The notes beneath the pieces are model-generated. The model worked only from the letters and a program-made list of their open reading frames with translations, ran no database searches and was not told the DNA's origin. A DNA stretch of 32,000 nt from Dickeya solani IPO 2222 (lineage in GTDB: Bacteria > Pseudomonadota > Gammaproteobacteria > Enterobacterales > Enterobacteriaceae): assembly GCF_001644705.1 (NCBI RefSeq), contig NZ_CP015137.1:4440001-4472000 (forward strand), in the 5' to 3' direction. Shown here piece after piece: positions 5,953 to 15,063 of this stretch. Each line of letters starts with the position of its first letter. Position 1 is the stretch's first letter. The position numbers and the translations under genes were made by a program.

Positions 5953-6043
5953 ATCGTGTAAGAGCGTGAGCGGGGAATATGTCTGTACCCGTGTTGCACG
6001 AGTGAGAGAAATACATCAGGTCTATTTTCTAATAACAAGCATT

Positions 6044-6106
6044 GATAATGAAAATAATTATCAAATCATAATCTGCGATCATTTCCCCATAATGAAAAGC
6101 ATTATC
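6044..6106. promoter_or_regulatory. Two Fur boxes upstream of ftnA
   Basis: GATAATGAAAATAATTATC (6044-6062) matches the Fur consensus GATAATGATAATCATTATC at 17 of 19 positions. CATAATGAAAAGCATTATC (6088-6106) matches at 16 of 19. Both sit in an AT-rich region 130-190 bp upstream of the ftnA start. Confidence 0.7.
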
Positions 6107-6239
6107 ATGGCTAAATGATAATGCTTTGAATTTATAACGAAATCATTCACTGGCTGGTTAATGGAATGTTTTAAATTTTATTATTTGCAGGCATAATGCG
6201 AATCCATCAGTCACCTGCCAGTAAAAATAAGGAATGATC

Positions 6240-6749
6240 ATGTTAAAAAAAGAAATGATTCAAAAGCTGAATGAGCAGCTTAATCTTGAATTTTACTCCG
6301 CCAATTTATACCTGCAGATGAGCGCCTGGTGTGGCGACAAAGGTTTTGAAGGGGCGTCGACTTTCCTGAAATCGCATTCCCGTGAAGAAATGGAGCACAT
6401 GCAGCGCTTGTTCGATTATCTGGGCGATACTGGCAGCATGCCGGTGCTGGGCGCAATTGCCGCGCCGCCGGTTGATTTCAACTCGCTGCAGGATGTGTTC
6501 AAACTGACCTATGAACACGAGCAATTGATCACCAGTAAAATCAATGAGCTGGCTCACGCAGCCATGACGTTGCAGGATTACTCCACCTTCAACTTCCTGC
6601 AGTGGTACGTGTCGGAGCAGCATGAAGAAGAAAAACTGTTCAAGTCGATCCTCGACAAGATGGGCATGGTGAATGCTCAGGAAGGCGGTCTGTTCTTTAT
6701 TGATCAGGATCTGAAGAAAATGGCGGCATCCGTCACGCCGTCTGCCTGA
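6240..6749 (+). CDS. ftnA: Non-haem ferritin
   Basis: [31 protein letters not shown]... and ..[38 protein letters not shown] are near-identical to E. coli FtnA. The start at 6240 (after AAGGAA) is preferred over the track start at 6234. Confidence 0.95.
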
Positions 6750-6756
6750 CGATGGT

Positions 6757-6798
6757 CGGGCAGCTGGATTATCCTGCTGCCCGGTTTATTGTTATTTT
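6757..6798 (+). terminator. ftnA terminator candidate
   Basis: Stem CGGGCAGC (6757-6764) pairs with GCTGCCCG (6776-6783) around an 11-nt loop, followed by the T-rich tract GTTTATTGTTATTTT. Confidence 0.55.
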
Positions 6799-7256
6799 CC
6801 GTCTGTTTCTCTCGAATATAAATATTATAGATATTGCACCACATACGGTATGTTCCTGTTATTTCCCCACTGCTAAACTACTTCCAAAATTTAAACGCCA
6901 TTTCATAACAATATGCTAAATCTTGTCCTGCCGTCATGCATGGTGTCTCGGTGAATGGACGTTGCATTCTCTCCGATTGTGATCATCTTTTCGCCACCTG
7001 AATATAGTGCGTGCATGGTGAAAGACTAATTACCCGTATGTTCATGCGTTATCGTATTCAGTGCTGGTGAACATTGTGGTTTGGTGAACGAGGAACGTAC
7101 CGTACACACACGATTATTTCAGCAGCCAGCGGAATAATAACGGTGTTTCCCGGCAGCTTCCATCTAAGCCGCCGTCGTTTAAGCGGTTGGCATTATACGT
7201 CGATGTCCAACAGGATTAAGCGAATTCACCGTATTTTCGCAAGAGAGAGCAAGCTG

Positions 7257-7946
7257 ATGACATTGGAAAAAATGACGCGTTATTTATCGTCATTGATGCT
7301 GGTGTTGGCGTGTTTCCCGGTAATGGCAGGTCAGTCGTTATGCCCCGGTAAATTTATCCACAATGAAACACCCAATATTCATTATGACGAAGAGATTTGT
7401 TTCACTGAATTTGTCGTGCTTTATAGTTATGCGAATAAAGCGCCATTAATTTCTGCCGAGCGTTTAACCGCCGAACGGGTCAAAGCCGCGGACACCATTT
7501 CCCGGCGTGACTCATTTCATGTTGAGCCATTAATACCCAGAGCGGTGCGATCGGCAACTGACGATTATGAGTACTCCGGATACGATCAGGGACATATGAC
7601 GCCAGCGGGGAATATGCCAAATCCTCTGGCACAGCATGAGTCTTTTTCTATGTCGAATATGACGCCGCAACTGCCGAAACTGAACCGGATATCCTGGCGT
7701 AAAGTCGAAGCGTCGGTTCGCAAACTGGCGTTGCAGGATGGAGAGGTATGGGTGGTGACGGGAGCCATATTCGGAAGCAAAAGAATCGGTAACGGTGTAT
7801 CGGTGCCGACTCTGATTTATAAGGCCATCAGGAGTCAATCAGTCCAGCAGGTTTTTGTGGGTGATAACACCACCGGCGTTGTCTCCAGCCTGTCAGTCAG
7901 TGACTTTTCCACACGGTATTCCATCGACCCATTCCCGGTGCAGTGA
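7257..7946 (+). CDS. Secreted or periplasmic DNA/RNA non-specific endonuclease (Serratia nuclease / EndoG family)
   Basis: Signal peptide (M)TRYLSSLMLVLACFPVMAGQ. Family motifs are YDQGHMTPAGN (the DRGH motif with R replaced by Q), SNMTPQ, and NRISWRKVE. The start could be 7257 or 7272; the 7074 start in the track adds an implausible 61-aa leader. Confidence 0.85.
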   Translation: MTLEKMTRYLSSLMLVLACFPVMAGQSLCPGKFIHNETPNIHYDEEICFTEFVVLYSYANKAPLISAERLTAERVKAADTISRRDSFHVEPLIPRAVRSATDDYEYSGYDQGHMTPAGNMPNPLAQHESFSMSNMTPQLPKLNRISWRKVEASVRKLALQDGEVWVVTGAIFGSKRIGNGVSVPTLIYKAIRSQSVQQVFVGDNTTGVVSSLSVSDFSTRYSIDPFPVQ

Positions 7947-8139
7947 ATAAGTCAAACAGCCCTGAGTGCCGATGGCGAGGACACCGGCAAACGTAGCTAA
8001 TTTGTACGGCGGTGATGGTTGAACCGATCGGTGGTAGCGATCAATTTCAAAAAATTGATCTGTAAAAACGTCTATAAAATAACCGATCATGATGCCATGA
8101 TGTCCATGCTAAACGCTAATTTGAACGCCAGGGAAACGG

Positions 8140-8164
8140 CCCACTGAGCAATCAGTGGGTTTTT
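8140..8164 (+). terminator. Rho-independent terminator about 200 nt after the nuclease stop; the hairpin is shared with the convergent cassette
   Basis: Stem CCCACTGA (8140-8147), loop GCAA, stem TCAGTGGG (8152-8159), then TTTTT (8160-8164). Confidence 0.65.
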
Positions 8165-8239: not shown

Positions 8240-9382
8240 TCACGAAGACGTTGCGGTATCCGGAATTCCACGCACCCTGATCGGCTCCTTCACGGCGTTT
8301 GCGGCGAGGAGGTGTTGAAGGGCGGAGATGGCGGTGTCGGTGAGTTCATGGCCCTTGGTGAGTACCATCAAGTCGTTGGTGGTGCGGATGTCTTCATCCA
8401 CTATCCAACCGGGTTTTAATTCGCAAATGCGCACAGTGCGGGTACCGGCCACGTTAGAGCGGAAATCAACCAACGATTTGATGATGTACTCAGGGATAGC
8501 CGGCCGCGCCACGCGCAGGATTTCCCTGGGATGTTCCAGACTCAGCCCCCGGGCAGCGTGGCGTTCCAGTTCCAGAGCGGCGCGCAAGAGGTGAGCGCCG
8601 CGGATAACCTCTGTGGGGGCGTTGGACGGGGCAACCCCGGCCTGGTGGCGGATGATCTCGGCCACCAGTTCGAGGCGGGGAATGTTCTTCACCAGGCGGC
8701 CGGCGACATCTGGGTGCTCCTGAAGGAGTTTTTTCTCATCCTCCGAGAGGTTACGCTGGGCTGCGTCGGCCTGGACGATATCGGCGGGAATACCAACACA
8801 GCCGATTTGGCTCAATGAGGCGGCGATGGTATATATCCATCCATCAGGCCACTCCAGCTTGGACAGAGCGTGGCGAACACAGGACTGGGCGAAGGCCGCC
8901 CGCTGAAAAGCCCAGGGAGCAACCATAGCGAGCACTTCAGTCAGTGTCTTGACCGAGGCGGTTAGGGTGGTTTCCAGTAACTCCTTTTCCGCACAGATGA
9001 GACGGTACTGACTGACTGCATCGCTAAGCGCCGCAACCAGTTCCTCCTTGGGGCAAGGTTTGCAGAGGTAGCGAAAGATGGCCCCTTTGTTAATGGCCGC
9101 GATGGAGGATTCCACGTCGGCTTGCCCGGTGAGGAGGATACGTACGCTGTCGGGCGAGATTTCCCGCGCTTTGGCGAGGAAGGTGGCGCCGTCCATGCCA
9201 GGCATACGCATGTCGGACATGATCACGGCAAAACGCTGTCCCCAGCGAACGGCGTCCAGGCCGGCTTCACCACTGTGAGCCACCACAACGTCGAATTCGC
9301 CAAAGAGGTTACGTTCCATTGCAGCAAGTACATTGGGCTCGTCGTCTACGCACAGCACCCGGGGCAAGGCAGTTTCAGTCAT
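8240..9382 (-). CDS. Response regulator: REC domain plus degenerate HD-GYP-like domain plus C-terminal ELKPGW-type domain
   Basis: REC residues are present: VDDEP, IMSDMRMPGMDG, YLCKP. The middle region aligns with the HD-GYP layout (..AASLSQIGCVGIP.. LSEDEKKLLQEHPDVAGRLV.. VAEIIRHQAG) but contains no HD dipeptide, no HHE and no GYP. The ATG overlaps the upstream stop by 8 nt, with AGGAA 7-8 nt upstream. Confidence 0.85.
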   Translation of the reverse strand: MTETALPRVLCVDDEPNVLAAMERNLFGEFDVVVAHSGEAGLDAVRWGQRFAVIMSDMRMPGMDGATFLAKAREISPDSVRILLTGQADVESSIAAINKGAIFRYLCKPCPKEELVAALSDAVSQYRLICAEKELLETTLTASVKTLTEVLAMVAPWAFQRAAFAQSCVRHALSKLEWPDGWIYTIAASLSQIGCVGIPADIVQADAAQRNLSEDEKKLLQEHPDVAGRLVKNIPRLELVAEIIRHQAGVAPSNAPTEVIRGAHLLRAALELERHAARGLSLEHPREILRVARPAIPEYIIKSLVDFRSNVAGTRTVRICELKPGWIVDEDIRTTNDLMVLTKGHELTDTAISALQHLLAANAVKEPIRVRGIPDTATSS

Positions 9383-10472
9383 CGAGAGTTTCCTGCGTGT
9401 GGGCGAGCATTTTCTGCCACTGGGGCAGTTTATTCAGCACGCCGGTTTGTTCAAGATAGTCCAGGTCCGGGCCGCTGTTATTGGCGAGAGCGACCGCTAC
9501 ATGCACAGCACCAATCGCGCCAAAGGTTTTATCCGCGGAACGGGAGGGGTGCGTGTGACAGGCTACGGCTTCCACGATGTCCACAGGTAAACCCCACAGC
9601 GCCAGCAGATATGCGCCTACCGCGGCGTGTATTGGGGTGTTGTCGCGAGTCGTGGTTGCCTCGTTGTCAGATTCCCTCAGTTCGGGGATAAGCAGCGCAA
9701 TGTTGGCAAGTAAGGCGGCGGTCGGCTCCAGTCCCTGATGACCGGAGATGCTGGCGGCCAGGGTTGAGGCGAGCAGCGCACGTTGTTGCAGCCGGTCCAC
9801 ATAAGGGTCGAGCTTCGCGTCCGCAAAGACCTGAGACGCCAGAACAAGTAGCTGCACCTGATCCAGACCCAGGTGGATGATGGCATTTCCGATGTCATTA
9901 ATGTGACCGCCTCTGGCAAAATAGGCCGAATTAGCAAGCTGCATAATCTTGGCGCTCAACGCAGGATCACTGCCCAGCAGTTCGGCGATCTGTCGGGTAT
10001 CGCTGCCGGGGTTGGCAATGAGACGGCATACTTCGGTGAACACTTTGGGGGCAGCCGGCAGTCGGCTGGTGCGGCCCACTATCTCGACCACCGCGGGGTC
10101 CTGGAACATGTCGCGCAGGGCCAGAGCGCTTCCTACCATCTCCAGCAGCACCGTGCTGTCACAGGGTTTGGATACAAACCGGTGGGCGACGTCCACCATA
10201 CGCACGGTGGCATCGGGTTCAGAATAGCCGGACAGGATGATGCGTATTGTACCAGGCCAGCGGTCGCGTACCTGAGTAAGTAATTCAGCGCCGTCCATGA
10301 AGGGCATTCGCATGTCGGACACCACCACGTCGGCCGGCTTCTTCTCCAGCATCGCAAGTGCCTCCTGGCCGCTATTGGCAAAGCGGCATTCCCATTCGGT
10401 GTCTTGCATCATGAGGGCCCGCTCAATACCGGAGAGCACCCGACTTTCGTCATCGACGAACATCACTTGCAT
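9375..10472 (-). CDS. Response regulator: REC domain plus HDOD domain
   Basis: REC residues are present: VDDES, VVSDMRMPFMDG, FVSKP. The HDOD signature is LPAAPKVFTEVCRLIANPGSDTRQIAELLGSDPALSAKIMQLANSAYFARGGHINDIGNAIIHLGLD. The ATG overlaps the kinase stop by 10 nt. Confidence 0.85.
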   Translation of the reverse strand: MQVMFVDDESRVLSGIERALMMQDTEWECRFANSGQEALAMLEKKPADVVVSDMRMPFMDGAELLTQVRDRWPGTIRIILSGYSEPDATVRMVDVAHRFVSKPCDSTVLLEMVGSALALRDMFQDPAVVEIVGRTSRLPAAPKVFTEVCRLIANPGSDTRQIAELLGSDPALSAKIMQLANSAYFARGGHINDIGNAIIHLGLDQVQLLVLASQVFADAKLDPYVDRLQQRALLASTLAASISGHQGLEPTAALLANIALLIPELRESDNEATTTRDNTPIHAAVGAYLLALWGLPVDIVEAVACHTHPSRSADKTFGAIGAVHVAVALANNSGPDLDYLEQTGVLNKLPQWQKMLAHTQETLDD

Positions 10473-11578
10473 GCCGGGCCATCCTCTGTGTGGCAGTGAA
10501 GGGGCAGTTGCAGGATGAACGTCGTCCCCACGCCTTCTTCAGACTCGCAACGGATCAGCCCATCATGTTTGTCTACCACGGTCGAGTAGACAATAGCGAG
10601 CCCCTGACCCGTGCCTTTGCCTACGGCTTTGGTCGTGAAGAAGGGATCGAAAATGCGGTCGCGGATCCCTGCAGGAATGCCGCCTCCGTCGTCTTTGACT
10701 CGGATCTCCATATACTCGCCGTCCCGCGCCGCTGATATGATGATGTTGCCTTTTTCCCTGATGCCTTCCTGAATGGTATCTGCGATGGCGTGGGCGGCGT
10801 TCACCACCAGGTTGATAATGGCCTGACCGATCATATCGCGCAGACACGGCAATTGCGGCAAGTCGTCCTCGAAGCAGGTCTCAAGTTCCGCCACGTATTT
10901 CCATTCGTTGCGGGCGACGGTCACCGTCGTGTTGATGACCTCGCGCACATCCACCAATTCCTTCTCGCTATGGGAAGGGTGGGAGAATTCCTTCATGGCA
11001 GCTACGATCTTGGCGATATGACCAAGGCCTTCCAGCGATTCGTCTAAGGCGTTTGGAATCTGGCGGCGCAGAAAATCCAGTTTAGTGCGCTTGAGAACGG
11101 TGTCGAACTCCGCCATCACGGGCTCTTCAGCCATTTTCCCCCGTGTGGCATCGGCCAACGCCAGCGCGGAGTCCAACAGGCTCAGAAGGGAAACGGTGGC
11201 TGTCTTAACGAAACCCACATTGTCGGAAACGTACTGGGTTGGCGTGTTAATTTCATGGGCGATGCCGGCGGCGAGTTGTCCGATGGACTCCATCTTCTGA
11301 GCCTGTAGCAATTGATCCTGGGTGAAGCGCAACTCGGTCAGCGTTTTTTCTAACTCCTGGCGTTCGTTTTCTAACTCCACGGTCTTGCGGGCGACCACCT
11401 TCTCCAGGCCTACGTTTTGTTCCAGGATGGCAAAGGGCGTAGCGTGGCTGTGTCTGGCCTCTTGTGCAATGCGGCGCTTGAGTACTTCAATGGTCTTGTC
11501 CCGGGCGGTGAGCTTGCGCTGGTATTCGGCGGTGGACAAACCACTGGCGGACGCTTCGGAAAATGTTCCTTCAGTCAA
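10463..11578 (-). CDS. Soluble histidine kinase (HisKA + HATPase_c) with only an N-terminal coiled coil
   Basis: H-box is [11 protein letters not shown]. ATPase boxes are [27 protein letters not shown] and [11 protein letters not shown]. No hydrophobic segment and no PAS/GAF-like region precedes the H-box. I prefer the TTG start at 11578, which has GGAGGA 7 nt upstream; the track uses the TTG at 11593, which lies inside that SD. Confidence 0.88.
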
Positions 11579-12695
11579 CGTTCTGTCCTCCAATGGCGAT
11601 GCCCGTGAAGGTTTGGTTCACGTGCAACCCGTTATATTGCTCGCCGTAGGTGGAAAAACCGATTACCCGGTTCTGCGCCATTACGCTGCCGATCTGCTGT
11701 TCAAGCCCTTCCTGTTCGAACTGGAGTCGACGCAGGATGCAATCACAGCCGATGATTACCGCGGGTTCTGGAATCGTCTCGCGGACTTTGTCAAAGGCCT
11801 GTTTGAGGGTTCGGACCGGGTCCTCCGCTTTGCCGATGGCGACGATCAGTCCTTCTTCGATGGCGCAGTAGCAGGTGAGAGAGAGATCGTCGTTCCACTT
11901 CTGTATGGAACGGACGTAGGGTTCATCACCGAAGGAGAGCATCAGCGGATTGCGGGAAAATACCGTCGGCGTCAATTCGTTCACCGTGAGACCTAAGGCT
12001 TCCGCGTAAACCTGAGCGGCAGGTTCGCCGTTTATCTCCAGGATGAGCCGCTTCTCCGGGTCGGCCTCGGTGATGATTAGCTCTACCTCGCTGGGTTCGA
12101 AGTGCTGGACCTTAAAGGTGGTGACGGGCGAATGGGTCTCGATAACAGCGAATACGGCTGCGTCGGAAATGAACCGTCCATTTCCATCATAGACATGAGT
12201 CTTTTCGAAACGTAGGTCATCACCAGCGGAGCCGCCGATTATAGGAACGTTGCCGATCTGCTGATAGAGGTTCGCTACCAGACGTTCTTCGACCATAGAG
12301 AGGCCGTCTACCAGCAGCAGACCGAAACGATGCAGGTTCGGCCTGGCCTCACTATCGCGGCGAATTGCTTCGGCGATATCGGCCACTACCGCGGTATAGT
12401 TGACCAAAGGTTGAATCATGAAGGAGTGGATGCGAAAACCGCCGCCTAATCCGAGACCCAATAGTCCAGAGTGCTGGAAGCCTTCGGTGCCAATCTGTCC
12501 AGAGGACGTGCAACCTATGCAGGGACAGGAGAAGGTGTTCTTCAACTCTCGGCCCAGAACATCCAGGTCGTAGTCTGGGGAGCAGAAGAAAATGACGGCA
12601 TCGATGCCTTCATGACCAATCTGGCTGGCAAACTCGGCGACAGCCTCGACCGGGTTCGGCGATTCGCTACTGGCATATTTGGGTTGGACATTCAT
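11571..12695 (-). CDS. Stand-alone FIST-domain protein (FIST_N + FIST_C)
   Basis: FIST_N pattern: DAVIFFCSPDYDLDVLGRELKNTFSCPCIGCTSSGQIG. FIST_C pattern: VPIIGGSAGDD..., AVIIGCDCILRRLQFEQEG..., VIGFSTYGEQYNGLHVNQTFTG. GGGAGA lies 7 nt upstream of the ATG at 12695. No other domain is present. Confidence 0.85.
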   Translation of the reverse strand: MNVQPKYASSESPNPVEAVAEFASQIGHEGIDAVIFFCSPDYDLDVLGRELKNTFSCPCIGCTSSGQIGTEGFQHSGLLGLGLGGGFRIHSFMIQPLVNYTAVVADIAEAIRRDSEARPNLHRFGLLLVDGLSMVEERLVANLYQQIGNVPIIGGSAGDDLRFEKTHVYDGNGRFISDAAVFAVIETHSPVTTFKVQHFEPSEVELIITEADPEKRLILEINGEPAAQVYAEALGLTVNELTPTVFSRNPLMLSFGDEPYVRSIQKWNDDLSLTCYCAIEEGLIVAIGKAEDPVRTLKQAFDKVRETIPEPAVIIGCDCILRRLQFEQEGLEQQIGSVMAQNRVIGFSTYGEQYNGLHVNQTFTGIAIGGQNVD

Positions 12696-12744
12696 GACGA
12701 GTTCTCCCGATGCTAAGCAGAAACCTTCGCCTGCGCTCCTGCAT

Positions 12745-12785
12745 TCTTCAGTTACCCTCTGTCAGTATCCTTCTGTCAGTTATCC
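12745..12785 (-). repeat. Three tandem 13-15 bp repeats in the cassette leader
   Basis: Plus-strand units are TCTTCAGTTACCC (12745-12757), TCTGTCAGTATCC (12758-12770) and TTCTGTCAGTTATCC (12771-12785). They are followed by the inverted repeat CCTCTC-ca-GAGAGG (12785-12798) and (GGT)x4 (12802-12813). Confidence 0.7.
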
Positions 12786-13381
12786 CTCTCCAGAGAGGTT
12801 AGGTGGTGGTGGTACAAATAGCAAATATGCAGAATTTTATCTTATCTATGTATATCAATAGGACGGCCACCTCCCATTGTTATGCTGCCATTCTCCGAAT
12901 ACGCATTAACAATAAGAAAATGCCGCGTGACCAGGCTGGTGAAAGGCCTACGGGATTTCGGGCTACGGCAAACCCAACGCATTTATCCACCGTCGCGAAA
13001 ATGACGAATGGTCATTTTCTCTGAACTTTCGCCACCTTTGTTGAACAGCAGGGCTGTCTCAGTGGCGGCACTCCCAAGGGGGCCGCCGCCAGATAACTCC
13101 GGAGAGCGTCAGCGTGAGCAGTTCGTCAGGTTGGTGCTGGACAGTCGCCAACGCCTGGAGACTCTCTACACCAGTGGTCAGAGTGAAGCACAGATGGCCG
13201 CCGGAAAAGCCGCTGAGTTCGAACGTTTGCGTCAGCATTATCGACAAATGCGTGACCAGCAATGGAGTGGTGAAGGTCGATACGATGATTAGTTCGCAGG
13301 CGAACGATTGCTTAATGATAACGCTTCTTGGGATAGGTTATTCGAGTCGCTTAGCTTGAACTTTTTGTTACATCCCTGTTA

Positions 13382-13419
13382 TTGAAAGGTCTATCTTGCG
13401 ACAGATAATGATGATTATC
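13382..13419 (+). promoter_or_regulatory. Sigma70-type promoter (candidate RyeA promoter) overlapped by a Fur-like inverted repeat
   Basis: TTGAAA (13382-13387), a 16-nt spacer, then GATAAT (13404-13409). GATAATGATGATTATC (13404-13419) is GATAAT/ATTATC with a 4-nt spacer, so it resembles a Fur box but does not have canonical spacing. Confidence 0.45.
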
Positions 13420-13450
13420 TAACCCGTTGCAATTTACACCGGGTACGGAT

Positions 13451-13480
13451 TTTCGGACAAATTTCGGACATTTTCGGACA
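13451..13480 (+). repeat. Three direct repeats of TTTCGGACA at 10-11 bp spacing
   Basis: TTTCGGACA occurs at 13451-13459, 13462-13470 and 13472-13480. The repeats lie just outside the SdsR terminator and inside the predicted RyeA 5' region. Confidence 0.75.
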
Positions 13481-13512
13481 TTGAAAAATAAATCATTTAA
13501 AATCAATGGCAT

Positions 13513-13618
13513 AAAAAAAGACCGAACACGATTCCTGTGCCCGGTCTAGGGAAATGGCTCTTGGGAGAGAGCCGTGCGCTAAAAGTTGGCATTTGTTGCG
13601 GGCTGCATCACAACCCGC
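13513..13618 (-). ncRNA. sdsR: SdsR (RyeB) small RNA
   Basis: The minus strand reads GCGGGTTGTGATGCAGCCCGCAACAAATGCCAACTTTTAGCGCACGGCTCTCTCCCAAGAGCCATTTCCCTAGACCGGGCACAGGAATCGTGTTCGGTCTTTTTTT. The core ATGCCAACTTTTAGCGCACGGCTCTCTCCCAAGAGCCATTTCCCT is identical to the E. coli SdsR sequence as I remember it. A terminator hairpin GACCG..CGGTC plus U7 follows. A sigma-S-type -10 CTACGCTTAA lies at 13631-13622. The position next to yebY is as in E. coli. Confidence 0.85.
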
Positions 13619-13762
13619 ACTTTAAGCGTAGACGACTCACTTTCGTTTGCCAGTCTGGCCCAGTTTTTGACGGTCAATTCTGAAACAATCTGTACACTTT
13701 GTGACAACCAGCGCAAACCCGCGTATTCGTAATCCACTCTCTCTTCAGGAGTGCTATATGCG

Positions 13763-14101
13763 CTACTGGCAGAGGGCTTTTGCCCGGTCGATAAAGGGTT
13801 GCAGACTCATTTTTTGGCCCGGATTCTGCGGGTCATCCAGAAGAAGGGTTTCCAGCGGACGAGCGTTCATCTTGCCGGAGTTGACCTGCTCACGCGCCAC
13901 GTCATTGAGCGGGTATTGCACCAGCGTACTGGGATTGATCACGTACATGGCATGGCCGGGTCTGCAGATCAACTGAACTTCTTCGCGGTTGAACGCCCAG
14001 CGCGGGCCATATTCCAGCTTGCTCAGGTTAGCCAGTTGCGGCGCGGCTAACGCCTGGGCCGACAACACAGAGACAATAAGCGACAGCACTACTTTTTTCA
14101 T
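13763..14101 (-). CDS. yebY: YebY (DUF2511) periplasmic protein
   Basis: [22 protein letters not shown]... [35 protein letters not shown]... [15 protein letters not shown] closely matches E. coli YebY. Confidence 0.9.
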
Positions 14102-14619
14102 TGTGATATTCCATGTAAAGCTCCCAGGCGGGAGATGACCTCAGGTCTACCGCCGGGCGAGACGATACCTCACCACAACGAGACGGCGAGTGGCAGGCCC
14201 GGAAGGGCGATCATAACGGCCGGGTTTGATGAAGTCGAGTCGGCCAGATCGACATTGATCTTACCTGGGAGCGGGTGAGCTGCCGGGTAAGGACGAAGAA
14301 AACGACGTTATTCATACGGGGAACGGAAACGTGCCGTTGATTTTCTTGCCAGAGGTAAGGTGTAAAAACCGATGAGCCTTCAGGAACCCCTTTGTCTGCA
14401 AGATGATATTGGTTACCTGATTATATGTTCTGGTTTCCTATCAGGACGGCTGGATAATTCCTATATCTTCATCGTTATTACCTATTGAATAAATAATGAT
14501 ATTCAGAATGCACATTTGTTTATCTGACGAATAATTTTCGTATAATTCACAACGAAATTTTCAGAGAGATAATTATTGGTCATCAATGGCTTCAAATTAA
14601 ACAGGGAGTTGAGGTAGTA

Positions 14620-15063
14620 ATGAATAAAGTTAAAATATTTTTATTAATGGCAATAGCATCGTTGATACCGCTGAACGTCATCGCAGGAACGTCAACTAAT
14701 CCTCCGCGCATTCCGGCAATTAAACTCATCACCACACCGGATAGCCATTCGGCTTATCTGAAAGGCAGCATTCCTGTGCTGGAAAAAATACCCGCGCAAA
14801 ATTTCTGGATTAATAACTCGGTGGAGGCGTGGGAGAAAAGCACGCACCCGGCGCCGAGAAAACAATATGTCATTACGCTGAAAGGTAAGCTGAAATTCAA
14901 AGTCAGTGACGGTTCTACATTTATTCTGTCGCCGGGAACGGTTTTGCTGGCTGAGGATACCAATGGCGAAGGGCACAGCTGGGAACTGATGGAAGGCGAC
15001 GAATGGGTCAGGGTTTATATTCCGATGACCGGTGATAATGACTATTTTGTTGCCGATCAATAA
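14620..15063 (+). CDS. Secreted small cupin-like protein (hypothetical)
   Basis: 147 aa with signal peptide MNKVKIFLLMAIASLIPLNVIAG. A beta-rich C-terminal half (..TLKGKLKFKVSDGSTFILSPGTVLLAEDTNGEGHSWELMEGDEWVRVYIP) resembles a single cupin barrel. GGGAG/GAGG lies upstream. The gene and its 200-bp upstream region are markedly AT-rich. Confidence 0.6.
   Translation: MNKVKIFLLMAIASLIPLNVIAGTSTNPPRIPAIKLITTPDSHSAYLKGSIPVLEKIPAQNFWINNSVEAWEKSTHPAPRKQYVITLKGKLKFKVSDGSTFILSPGTVLLAEDTNGEGHSWELMEGDEWVRVYIPMTGDNDYFVADQ

Follow-up and report, generated by a model that had tools for sequence, protein, structure and literature searches.

A NosP-like FIST protein, a soluble histidine kinase and two apparently non-catalytic HD-superfamily response regulators in a predicted operon of Dickeya solani

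In a window of 32,000 nucleotides of the plant pathogen Dickeya solani IPO 2222 (contig NZ_CP015137.1), we read four minus-strand open reading frames between positions 12695 and 8240, which encode a stand-alone FIST protein, a soluble histidine kinase, a REC-HDOD response regulator (RR1) and a REC-degenerate HD-GYP response regulator (RR2) (Table 1). We consider it reasonably probable that together they form one operon, whose products make up a two-component system that senses through an accessory protein and branches to two outputs, neither of them transcriptional. Two aspects appear to be new: the order kinase, REC-HDOD, REC-dead-HD-GYP, which is repeated in numerous phyla while the sensor input is exchanged, and the extra REC-HDOD regulator relative to the NosP/NosK/NosR trio. 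A preliminary description of this DNA had known of no characterized system of this composition; that fails for the trio, which is the NosP/NosK/NosR nitric-oxide paradigm of Burkholderia, and stands for the composition with the added REC-HDOD, of which we found no description in the literature searched.

Table 1. Features of the cassette and its flanks, in window coordinates.
Feature	Position	Strand	Remark
FIST protein	12695..11571	-	374 aa
FIST_N	12024-12602	-	within FIST protein
FIST_C	11631-12020	-	within FIST protein
Kinase	start 11593 or 11578, end 10463	-	371 aa from 11578
Kinase N-terminal helical segment	11294-11578	-	
Kinase His108 codon	11257-11255	-	in DHp
Kinase HATPase_c	10499-10834	-	
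RR1 (REC-HDOD)	10472..9375	-	365 aa
RR1 REC	10134-10466	-	
RR1 D53	10316-10314	-	
RR1 HDOD	9546-10061	-	
RR2 (REC-HD_5)	9382..8240	-	380 aa
RR2 REC	9026-9358	-	
RR2 D57	9214-9212	-	
RR2 degenerate HD-GYP	8642-8947	-	
RR2 S191-Q192	8812-8807	-	in place of HD
RR2 C-terminal beta/alpha domain	about 8267-8449	-	small, conserved; no Pfam family
Upstream element ATTTGCTATTTGTACCACCACCACCTAACCT	12796..12826	-	conserved; candidate promoter or operator
Tandem 14-nt direct repeats (families D1, D2)	12748..12785	-	between ATTTGCTATTTGTACCACCACCACCTAACCT element and ribosome-binding site
GC-rich hairpin	8140..8159	.	between convergent RR2 and endonuclease genes

The genes are packed with overlapping stop and start codons, as the preliminary description had noted, and each has its own Shine–Dalgarno site. 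Those of the kinase and RR1 overlap by 10 nt (ATGCAAGTGA), those of RR1 and RR2 by 8 nt (ATGACTGA), and those of the FIST protein and the kinase by 23 or 8 nt, depending on whether the kinase starts at TTG 11593 or TTG 11578. Since inspection of the sequence found no ribosome-binding site upstream of TTG 11593, a kinase of 371 residues with an 8-nt overlap is likely; TTG 11578, where public gene records also place the start, has GGAGG 8 nt upstream. The ATG codons of the FIST protein, RR1 and RR2 follow GGGAGA (7 nt upstream), GAGGA (9 nt) and AGGA (8 nt), respectively. Identical overlaps are retained in the cassettes of Kosakonia, Shewanella, Mangrovibacter, D. parazeae and Xanthomonas, and a consensus scan predicted internal promoters and terminators in no excess over chance. 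From the gene overlaps we infer co-transcription of all four genes as a translationally coupled operon, an earlier proposal that the overlaps and Shine–Dalgarno sites support.

The FIST protein scores 157 bits for FIST and 81 bits for FIST_C in Pfam, and is presumed to be a NosP-like, ligand-sensing partner of the kinase. It matches the NCBIfam NosP model end to end at 397 bits (cut-off 450) and is 41% identical over its full length (E = 3e-100) to a PGAP-annotated NosP whose gene adjoins that of a NahK-type kinase. FIST had been called essentially uncharacterized, which is incorrect: stand-alone FIST proteins beside kinases constitute the NosP (NO-sensing protein) family, with biochemistry in Pseudomonas, Vibrio, Shewanella, Legionella and Burkholderia. 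Binding of NO or haem by FIST itself is still described cautiously in the literature (PMC8846402). The D. solani FIST clade as a whole scores 358–413 bits, below the curated cut-off, so that its ligand need not be that of NosP, and NCBI names none of its members NosP.

This position under the equivalog cut-off favours a reading that keeps the architecture but gives the FIST protein a stimulus other than NO or haem, such as an amino acid, another small metabolite, or redox state or a metal detected by way of the invariant cysteines. Borziak and Zhulin reportedly predicted in 2007 that the ligand of FIST is small, an amino acid for example. The residues invariant across the clade, which include C62, H198, C277 and C317-D318-C319, would also suit metal or redox chemistry, but the same residues are invariant in the annotated NosP. 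At other loci the same kinase core is fused to MHYT, which Galperin et al. are said to have proposed in 2001 as a sensor of diatomic gases. Although little is known of FIST ligand binding, according to a review (PMC8846402), all kinase-paired stand-alone FIST proteins tested responded to NO or haem (PMC12570481), and we regard a different ligand as possible, if somewhat unlikely.

Pfam confirmed the FIST, kinase, HDOD and HD-type assignments made earlier, with only HisKA marginal: the kinase has HATPase_c at 79 bits and HisKA at E = 0.073. Its H-box (AHEINTP, with His108) and its N, G1, F and G2 boxes are all present, and none of the four cassette proteins has a membrane-spanning-like segment. 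By its motifs the kinase is catalytically complete and is predicted to be soluble, in agreement with its first portrayal as a cytoplasmic kinase without a sensor domain of its own, and its HEINT motif would fit bifunctional HisKA kinases. The family of the core is NCBIfam NF038348, at 217 bits. A NahK/ErcS-type identity was rejected, as only the ATPase domain is common with the annotated Azospirillum NahK-type kinase. Matches to the N-terminal segment come mainly from FIST-linked loci (eight, plus locus L063, which has no FIST gene). A Mesoterricola kinase encoded after a FIST gene is 53% identical to that of D. solani over its full length, the two FIST proteins are 51% identical, and the Mesoterricola genes run REC-HD_5, FIST, kinase, which is the nosRPK order.

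Both regulators have intact receivers, in which the acidic pair, the phospho-Asp (D53 and D57), the Ser/Thr and the Lys are all kept. Their outputs had been described as non-catalytic HD-superfamily domains without a helix-turn-helix, and this was borne out by the loss of metal ligands and by Pfam, which finds no DNA-binding domain in either. RR1 matches Response_reg and HDOD (103 bits), and its HDOD-only profile matches 3HC1 (E = 7e-40) and the MmoQ structures 3LJX and 3P3Q (E about 1e-31). The HDOD motifs read HS, LLHD, THAEVG and FHHxP in distant homologues and R, LLAN, IHAAVG and CHTHP in the Dickeya clade, and RR1 lacks about four of the six di-iron ligands of 3HC1 (ligand set from PMC12075610). 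Deletion of a D. zeae REC-HDOD gene, probably the RR1 orthologue by its domain description rather than its sequence, had mild effects, with swarming up and exoenzymes slightly down (PMC5113947).

RR2 matches Response_reg and HD_5 (57 bits), scores 202 bits on the NosR model (cut-off 400) and has an AlphaFold2 model with a mean pLDDT of 84.7. Relative to solved structures its HD has become SQ, its HHE has become RHQ and the GYP loop is deleted. SQ replaces HD in 66 of the 66 RR2 homologues examined, with (Y/H)Q for HHE; the loop deletion is a feature of the Dickeya clade of RR2. The RR2 profile matches V-cGAP3 5z7c (E = 2e-15), DvhD 9rbz (1e-13), PA4781 and PmGH, pairing LHDIGK with LSQIGC and HHE..GYP with yqe..G-P. 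By alignment, both outputs have decayed further in the FIST-linked clade, through loss of the HDOD metal ligands and deletion of the GYP loop.

Public annotation ('HD domain-containing phosphohydrolase', 'RpfG family c-di-GMP phosphodiesterase' and the like), and D. zeae papers that treat the HDOD gene as a phosphodiesterase, would have RR1 and RR2 retain hydrolase activity on c-di-GMP or another nucleotide. We find this highly improbable, with the metal-binding HD and HHE residues replaced in RR2, most HDOD metal ligands gone from RR1, and no such activity in the comparable HnoD, DvhD, GsmR and SadB. RR2 could alternatively be a cyclic-dinucleotide receptor in which the dead HD-GYP binds c-di-GMP and integrates phosphorylation with second-messenger level. 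DvhD, matched by the RR2 profile as above, likewise has SQ for HD and binds c-di-GMP (Kd about 99 nM) without hydrolysis (PMC13090378), and the equivalents of its contacts L577 and K582 are kept in NLSEDEK. However, its Y621 sits in the loop deleted in the Dickeya clade, and its R650/Y652/R653 (RPRSYR) faces unrelated residues throughout the RR2 family in a mapping made by hand from the HMMER alignment, which leaves a receptor role doubtful.

We compared 80 REC-HDOD loci drawn from many phyla. A REC-dead-HD-GYP gene is present in 65 of them, immediately downstream of REC-HDOD in 56 by script and, once corrected by hand, in about 60; 73 have a kinase with this core and 8 have FIST. Elsewhere the inputs of this kinase are HAMP-GAF-PAS, REC-PAS, Amt-PAS, CHASE8 or MHYT, and in Burkholderia pyrrocinia an MHYT kinase of this core family is paired with a true NosR-family regulator. 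The RR1 and RR2 receivers resemble each other (cross-scores 52–79 bits) and have one common kinase, their pair is conserved as a unit, and many related loci hold extra single-domain receivers. These features would also suit an arrangement in which a single regulator carries the output while its partner acts mostly as a sink or rival for phosphate and thereby tunes the kinetics of the first, like paired CheY proteins; the B. pseudomallei authors argue that NosK is mainly a phosphatase in vivo (PMC12570481). But both outputs and the RR2 C-terminal domain are conserved across phyla, which argues for a function of each, and a sink has no need of a 240-residue conserved output domain, so we think such an arrangement improbable.

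In Dickeya, Kosakonia, Mangrovibacter, Shewanella and Xanthomonas the intact cassette is surrounded by unrelated genes and therefore moves as a unit. It has a GGDEF gene for a neighbour in Kosakonia and an EAL gene for one in Mangrovibacter, and in Sedimenticola the module has REC-GGDEF-EAL genes at its side. These neighbours count as links to c-di-GMP, together with the descent of RR2 from HD-GYP and the B. pyrrocinia pairing. The earlier statements that mobility genes are not adjacent and that the equivalent E. coli locus lacks the cassette both held: no integrase or transposase lies within 8 kb, and 5,426 E. coli genomes yielded no DNA match. The E. coli order yobA-copD-yebY is uninterrupted; in D. 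solani, 7.8 kb separate copD from yebY, which is inverted. Because the GC (55–60%) and GC3 (65–69%) of the cassette equal those of the core genes of the window, there is no compositional sign of recent acquisition: RR2 does contain AGG, as claimed, in two codons, but the hint of foreign origin drawn from rare codons found no support.

Upstream, the ATTTGCTATTTGTACCACCACCACCTAACCT element is conserved in an alignment of D. solani, D. parazeae, Kosakonia, Shewanella sp. and Mangrovibacter, in which flanking genes are unrelated. It was not called as a promoter by the consensus scan; it moves together with the cassette and may serve as its promoter or operator. The tandem 14-nt repeats occur in Dickeya only and are missing from the Kosakonia, Shewanella and Mangrovibacter leaders. 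The downstream hairpin, missed by the terminator consensus scan, folds as RNA at −13.3 kcal/mol with a weak U tail (CCGUUU) on the minus strand and at −16.2 kcal/mol with a UUUUU tail on the plus strand (fold z about −3), and is likely to be a shared terminator of the RR2 and endonuclease genes.

In the two-component system that we favour, the cytoplasmic NosP-like protein would bind a small molecule (haem or haem-bound nitric oxide, to judge from its family) and dock on the kinase, probably at the helical N-terminal segment that co-occurs with FIST, shifting its balance between kinase and phosphatase activity. His108 would then donate phosphate to D53 of RR1 and D57 of RR2, and, as neither output can be a metal-dependent hydrolase, phosphorylation would change their binding partners. 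Genes for such partners or targets are absent from the cassette; the precedents of HnoD, RpfG, SadB and GsmR suggest c-di-GMP enzymes or motility or biofilm regulators elsewhere in the genome. The kinase and two regulators would represent an ancient output module of many phyla, in which the Dickeya clade swapped the usual fused sensor domains for a FIST protein and a truncated kinase.

Among known systems, nosRPK of Burkholderia pseudomallei (BPSS1646-1648) and B. thailandensis, compared here through its published description, has the same three kinds of component: a FIST protein that stands alone, a cytoplasmic kinase encoded beside it, and a REC regulator with a degenerate HD-GYP output. There NosP controls NosK autophosphorylation and NosK phosphorylates NosR; the kinase likewise has no recognized sensor domain and an N-terminal extension of about 100–130 residues, and the system is linked to biofilm, motility and NO phenotypes (PMC12570481). 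The D. solani cassette differs in its order (FIST, kinase, regulators), in the inserted REC-HDOD, in an RR2 whose HD position reads SQ instead of HG, with the GYP/GTP loop missing altogether, and in a FIST protein and RR2 under the curated NosP and NosR cut-offs. In the H-NOX–HnoK network of Shewanella oneidensis and Vibrio cholerae (HnoB, HnoC, HnoD; plus NosP/HnoS), an accessory gas sensor also controls a soluble kinase that phosphorylates several regulators, among them the REC-degenerate HD-GYP protein HnoD (HD to SE, HHE to QLE), which inhibits the phosphodiesterase HnoB (10.1101/2021.11.05.467447, PMC8846402); the D. solani cassette has FIST instead of H-NOX, HDOD as its second branch, and neither EAL nor helix-turn-helix regulators. 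NosP-type FIST proteins also share an operon with a kinase in Legionella (NosP-NahK-NarR), Pseudomonas and Azospirillum (NosP-NahK), with a c-di-GMP regulator in Legionella, but their kinases fall into the NahK/ErcS group, with a hybrid kinase/response regulator in the annotated Azospirillum case, and the GGDEF-EAL enzyme NarR is active. RR1 shares its REC-HDOD architecture with MmoQ of Methylococcus, whose structures are labelled only MmoQ response regulator, and with GsmR of Xanthomonas campestris, described as an orphan regulator, which lacks the conserved His and phosphodiesterase activity and controls flagellar genes; neither is described with a FIST protein or a paired dead-HD-GYP regulator. 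The HDOD protein SadB has lost three metal histidines and is a proteolysis adaptor without ligand. DvhD of Desulfovibrio vulgaris (9RBZ / 9RC0) resembles RR2 in its HD-GYP fold with SQ for HD, no metal and no hydrolysis, but is a membrane dCache-PAS receptor that binds c-di-GMP, whereas RR2 is a soluble response regulator without the GYP loop and RxxY(R) contacts.

The four proteins of the cassette are exact matches to D. solani records, where NCBI names them, in cassette order, ‘FIST N-terminal domain-containing protein’, ‘sensor histidine kinase’, ‘HDOD domain-containing protein’ and ‘response regulator’. The packed minus-strand arrangement noted in the preliminary description is real and was accurately described: the positions of the open reading frames (ORFs) bear out its coordinates, and the overlaps read from the sequence are 8 nt (start TTG 11578) or 23 nt (TTG 11593) between the FIST and kinase genes, 10 nt between the kinase gene and that of the REC-HDOD regulator (RR1), and 8 nt between RR1 and the REC-dead-HD-GYP regulator (RR2). 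A purine-rich ribosome-binding site lies 7–9 nt 5′ of every cassette start; because none precedes TTG 11593, we prefer the 371-residue kinase that begins at TTG 11578, a start that independent gene calls also chose. Predicted promoters and terminators inside the cassette are no more frequent than expected by chance (one promoter-like and four terminator-like sites, at or below chance), and neither the leader nor the cassette has an Rfam match to a known RNA or riboswitch at E values up to 1. The hairpin that follows RR2 has a good U tail on the plus strand only and was not called by a consensus terminator scan, probably because a G-U extension of its stem uses up the T run. Taken together, the overlaps, the individual ribosome-binding sites, the chance-level internal signals and this hairpin make co-transcription a well-supported prediction from gene anatomy.

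The leader holds an element of roughly 30 nt, ATTTGCTATTTG..CCACCA..CCTAAyCT, that lies 5′ of the FIST gene and is conserved between genera (comparison loci L087, L088, L089 and L090), although the neighbourhoods of the cassette at these loci are unrelated; it is probably the cassette’s own promoter or operator. The element can be read as TTGCTA-17-TAACCT, with a −10 region that is sigma-S-like by eye. A consensus scan called no sigma-70 promoter 5′ of the FIST gene, and a sigma-54 reading of the element was rejected by eye because spacing and strand are both wrong. Between the element and the ribosome-binding site are tandem direct repeats that occur only in Dickeya, where they could bind a lineage-specific regulator.

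Positions of the cassette genes and associated features in the window
Feature	Position	Strand	Details
AT-rich flanks	~6000-8000 and 12700-15000		43-51% GC (window, 55%)
Hairpin	8140-8159	both	between convergent RR2 and endonuclease genes; -13.3 and -16.2 kcal/mol
RR2 gene	8240-9382	minus	REC-dead-HD-GYP (HD_5); D57
RR1 gene	9375-10472	minus	REC-HDOD; D53
Kinase gene	10463-11578	minus	371 aa; His108
FIST gene	11571-12695	minus	374 aa
Tandem 14-nt direct repeats (leader)	12748-12785		on plus strand: TCAGTTACCCTCTG / TCAGTATCCTTCTG / TCAGTTATCC
Conserved element (leader)	12796-12826	minus	~30 nt, 5′ of FIST gene

The FIST assignment holds, as both Pfam FIST (FIST_N) and FIST_C match the first protein, and its stand-alone FIST_N–FIST_C architecture of roughly 370 residues is that of NosP, which the literature describes as sensing NO through haem and controlling the kinase it is paired with. 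Residues 8–369 align to positions 1–368 of the 368-position NCBIfam NosP model NF041558 with 397 bits, below the curated equivalog cut-off of 450. In the same clade, nine relatives have scores of 358–413 bits, compared to 501 for a PGAP-annotated Azospirillum NosP taken as a control, which argues for a sister subfamily of curated NosP with no certified member; NCBI does not name this clade NosP either. The FIST protein is 41% identical (E = 3e-100) to the Azospirillum NosP, which adjoins a NahK/ErcS kinase. FIST and kinase genes are adjacent in every FIST-linked locus examined and overlap by 8 nt here, and the FIST gene is predicted to be co-transcribed with the histidine kinase gene next to it, as expected of a nosP. 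No residue-level data on the haem ligands of NosP were found in the literature searched, and a single-sequence search with the FIST protein found no FIST structure in the PDB. By analogy, we infer a NosP-like protein, a putative haem/NO sensor.

The kinase carries the H-box AHEINTP, complete N, G1, F and G2 boxes and a Pfam HATPase_c domain. Its DHp domain is preceded by about 95 helical residues that hold neither a membrane segment nor a Pfam sensor domain, and no membrane-like segment was found in any of the four proteins. In architecture it is thus of the NosK type, a soluble DHp-CA kinase with an N-terminal extension and no recognised sensor, encoded beside a nosP-like gene. A NahK/ErcS-type kinase would have a core whose homology extends over DHp and the catalytic domain, and the annotated Azospirillum example is a hybrid kinase with its own receiver; we rejected this assignment, as the window kinase has no receiver domain and resembles the Azospirillum NahK/ErcS in a 93-residue ATPase stretch only (33% identity). 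Its core belongs to NCBIfam NF038348. The N-terminal segment finds matches mainly at FIST-linked loci (eight such loci, plus L063, which has no FIST gene), and it is a plausible, putative docking site for the FIST protein.

In Mesoterricola the genes run REC-HD_5, FIST, kinase; over its full length, N-terminal helical segment included, the kinase shares 53% identity with that of the window, and the regulator is an RR2 homologue (34% identity). On Burkholderia pyrrocinia pBPJTT (L094, 1736-5077), a regulator scoring above the cut-off of the NosR family is followed by an MHYT-domain kinase that takes the place of NosP and NosK. This kinase matches the NCBIfam model ‘T2SS_HK’ (NF038348 family) and shares its core with the window kinase, so that MHYT and FIST look like alternative inputs to one kinase and regulator lineage.

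The HDOD assignment of RR1 is strong, with 102.6 bits on PF08668 against a gathering cut-off of 22.9 and profile matches to the solved HDOD structures 3HC1 (E = 7e-40), 3M1T (2e-37) and MmoQ (~1e-31). Both receivers, RR1 and RR2, keep every phosphorylation residue. The di-iron site of the 3HC1 type is built from five His and one Asp (PMC12075610), ligands that distant RR1 homologues retain in the motifs HS, LLHD, THAEVG and FHHxP. RR1 of the window has R for the first His, LLAN (AN for HD) and CHTHP for FHHxP, with the His of IHAAVG kept, and is not a metal-binding HDOD of this type. Orthology to GsmR, a REC-HDOD regulator of flagellar genes with no enzymatic activity, is not supported, because GsmR is described as an orphan regulator and the cassette was found in other Xanthomonas species (X. 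hyacinthi, X. translucens, X. populi and X. medicagonis). The sole genetic datum that bears on the cassette comes from D. zeae EC1, where deletion of the REC-‘HDOD’ gene W909_14520, a probable RR1 orthologue, increased swarming and slightly decreased protease and cellulase (PMC5113947).

For RR2, Pfam matches to REC and HD_5 with replaced catalytic residues uphold the reading as a degenerate HD-GYP. A single-sequence PDB search with the output domain gave nothing useful, and only its profile reached HD-GYP structures: V-cGAP3 (E = 2e-15), DvhD (1e-13), PA4781 and PmGH. In the profile alignment LHDIGK becomes LSQIGC and HHE..DGxGYP becomes yqe..dgsG-P; compared to these four proteins, RR2 has S191-Q192 for HD and RHQ for HHE, and it has no GYP loop. 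Across 66 aligned RR2 homologues, all phyla show SQ at the HD position; the Dickeya-type clade also lacks the GYP loop of about ten residues, a loss seen in the same FIST-linked clade that lost the HDOD metal ligands. We rejected an active phosphodiesterase of the RpfG family, as RR2 is without the metal HD, the HHE and the GYP motif; together with the ligand losses of RR1, this makes it likely that neither regulator is a hydrolase. The gene inventories in PMC5113947 and PMC7733949 do not list the REC-dead-HD-GYP gene beside the D. zeae HDOD gene, and, judged from sequence, neither of these two products is likely to hydrolyse c-di-GMP.

Two families of HD-GYP-type proteins were compared with RR2. 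On the NosR model NF053512 it scores 202 bits in two stretches, the better being REC plus linker, where the cut-off is 400 and the Burkholderia pyrrocinia regulator, as a control, reaches 562; RR2 is thus not a member of that family. The DvhD type (PDB 9RBZ and 9RC0) is defined by SQ at the HD position and by nucleotide contacts from the GYP tyrosine and an R-x-Y-R motif. RR2 has the SQ and the Leu and Lys contacts, but it has lost the GYP loop and does not conserve the RxYR motif, which makes nucleotide binding possible but unlikely. Its C-terminal beta/alpha domain (roughly 60 residues) is conserved, belongs to no Pfam family and is modelled confidently (pLDDT 80–90). Foldseek with the full RR2 model (pLDDT 84.7) returned receiver-domain matches only and did not find the fold of this domain, and modelling the domain by itself from one sequence gave no usable structure (pLDDT 43).

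Beyond the window, anchoring on REC-HDOD yielded at least 80 loci from Acidobacteriota, Planctomycetota, Myxococcota, Gammaproteobacteria, Chloroflexota and other phyla; the enterobacterial loci come from exact-protein look-ups and stand apart from this genome-collection scan. Among the 80 loci listed, 65 have a REC-dead-HD-GYP gene, directly downstream in 56 as counted by script and in about 60 after correction for overlapping stop-to-stop ORFs. A kinase with the same core is present in 73 of the 80, FIST in only 8, and at the other loci the kinase inputs are HAMP-GAF-PAS, REC-PAS, ammonium-transporter-PAS, CHASE8-HAMP or MHYT-PAS. These counts and varied inputs indicate, from gene content and order, a conserved unit that runs kinase, REC-HDOD, REC-dead-HD-GYP and whose inputs can be exchanged, FIST with a truncated kinase being one of them. 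Additional genes at some loci encode single-domain receivers, hybrid kinases or REC-GGDEF-EAL proteins. An unusual transporter–kinase fusion occurs in a Phycisphaeraceae MAG (L016, 4225-6891), where the kinase 5′ of the regulator pair is joined to a complete Amt and a PAS domain. Genes for c-di-GMP enzymes (dCache-GGDEF, MASE1-EAL and REC-GGDEF-EAL types) adjoin the cassette or module in Kosakonia (L087, 2572-4149), Mangrovibacter (L089, 1252-3504) and Sedimenticola (L024 and L045, ~9400-11270); their support for a c-di-GMP link is anecdotal.

The intact cassette, with unchanged overlaps, is found in other Dickeya species and Musicola; it is also intact in scattered Enterobacterales (Kosakonia, Erwinia, Pantoea, Sodalis, Mangrovibacter and Phytobacter), one Shewanella, Rhodocyclales and Xanthomonadales, including X. 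hyacinthi and X. translucens. The genes around it vary between all genera examined and even within Dickeya. In D. solani and in D. dadantii, where the FIST gene of strain 3937 is Dda3937_03321, it lies between yebY and copD; in D. parazeae Ech586 (L090, CP001836.1, 3778-8230) it is flanked by genes for an MFS transporter and for an MlrA-like regulator of the MerR type. As first described, no mobility genes lie near it in the window. It is in no E. coli genome searched. Plasmid records gave only short matches to nosP and receiver genes, none covering the cassette. In E. coli yobA-copD-yebY are contiguous; in D. solani a ferritin gene, an endonuclease gene, the cassette and a peptidase fragment are inserted and yebY is inverted. 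Judged by composition, recent acquisition was rejected: cassette and core genes have the same GC and GC3, which would fit a long stay in the genus. The AT-rich flanks hold the ferritin gene, an Endonuclease_NS gene, a 76-residue aminopeptidase-like fragment and small unassigned ORFs, and resemble accessory segments that were inserted separately between copD and the inverted yebY.

In the mechanism that is best supported, a cytoplasmic NosP-like sensor would gate the kinase/phosphatase balance of a soluble kinase, which would phosphorylate the receivers of RR1 and RR2, whose dead HD-superfamily domains may then signal through protein contacts. Precedents are Shewanella HnoD, a degenerate HD-GYP regulator that inhibits a phosphodiesterase; SadB, an HDOD adaptor for AmrZ proteolysis that requires no ligand; GsmR; and DvhD, an SQ-type dead HD-GYP that binds c-di-GMP. 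Of this scheme we infer the ligand, the contact between FIST protein and kinase, phosphotransfer to both regulators and the targets. A wider reading, which we regard as doubtful, is that kinase, REC-HDOD and REC-dead-HD-GYP form an ancient, uncharacterised output module of many phyla, in which the two catalytically silent regulators cooperate on a conserved target, for example as a phosphorylation-controlled heteromeric adaptor, and of which the Dickeya cassette is a streamlined, horizontally mobile form with a NosP-like gas or haem sensor in place of fused sensor domains. If true, it would give the first genetically tractable handle on HDOD function.

HDOD is among the commonest bacterial signalling output domains without a known mechanism, and a role of dead HD-GYP domains as adaptors or receptors is only now coming to be recognised. 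In many phyla a single kinase family is followed by the pair of them. Among tractable plant pathogens, Dickeya and Xanthomonas species such as X. translucens and X. hyacinthi have this arrangement in a compact four-gene form with NosP-like input, in which the signal, the receipt of phosphate by both regulators and their binding partners are directly testable. Dickeya encounters a host NO burst, and the cassette nominates a candidate sensor of plant-derived nitric oxide tied to motility and c-di-GMP control. Cassette-type proteins are counted as c-di-GMP phosphodiesterases in public annotation and in two published gene inventories, which the analysis corrects.

One of the closest known systems, nosRPK of B. 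pseudomallei, combines NosP with a kinase that has no recognised sensor and with a REC regulator whose HD-GYP is degenerate (PMC12570481); the Mesoterricola locus mirrors its gene order. With NosP, nosRPK and HnoD in the literature, the earlier statement that nothing comparable had been characterised is out of date, and the preliminary interpretation was right in part and overstated its novelty. Literature searches, provisional as the library is incomplete, found no FIST system described in Dickeya, Xanthomonas or relatives and no paper on the REC-HDOD and REC-dead-HD-GYP pairing. The cassette is a variant of the NosP-type accessory-sensor two-component system, and what appears to be new is the conserved and seemingly uncharacterised pairing, across many phyla, of REC-HDOD with REC-dead-HD-GYP.
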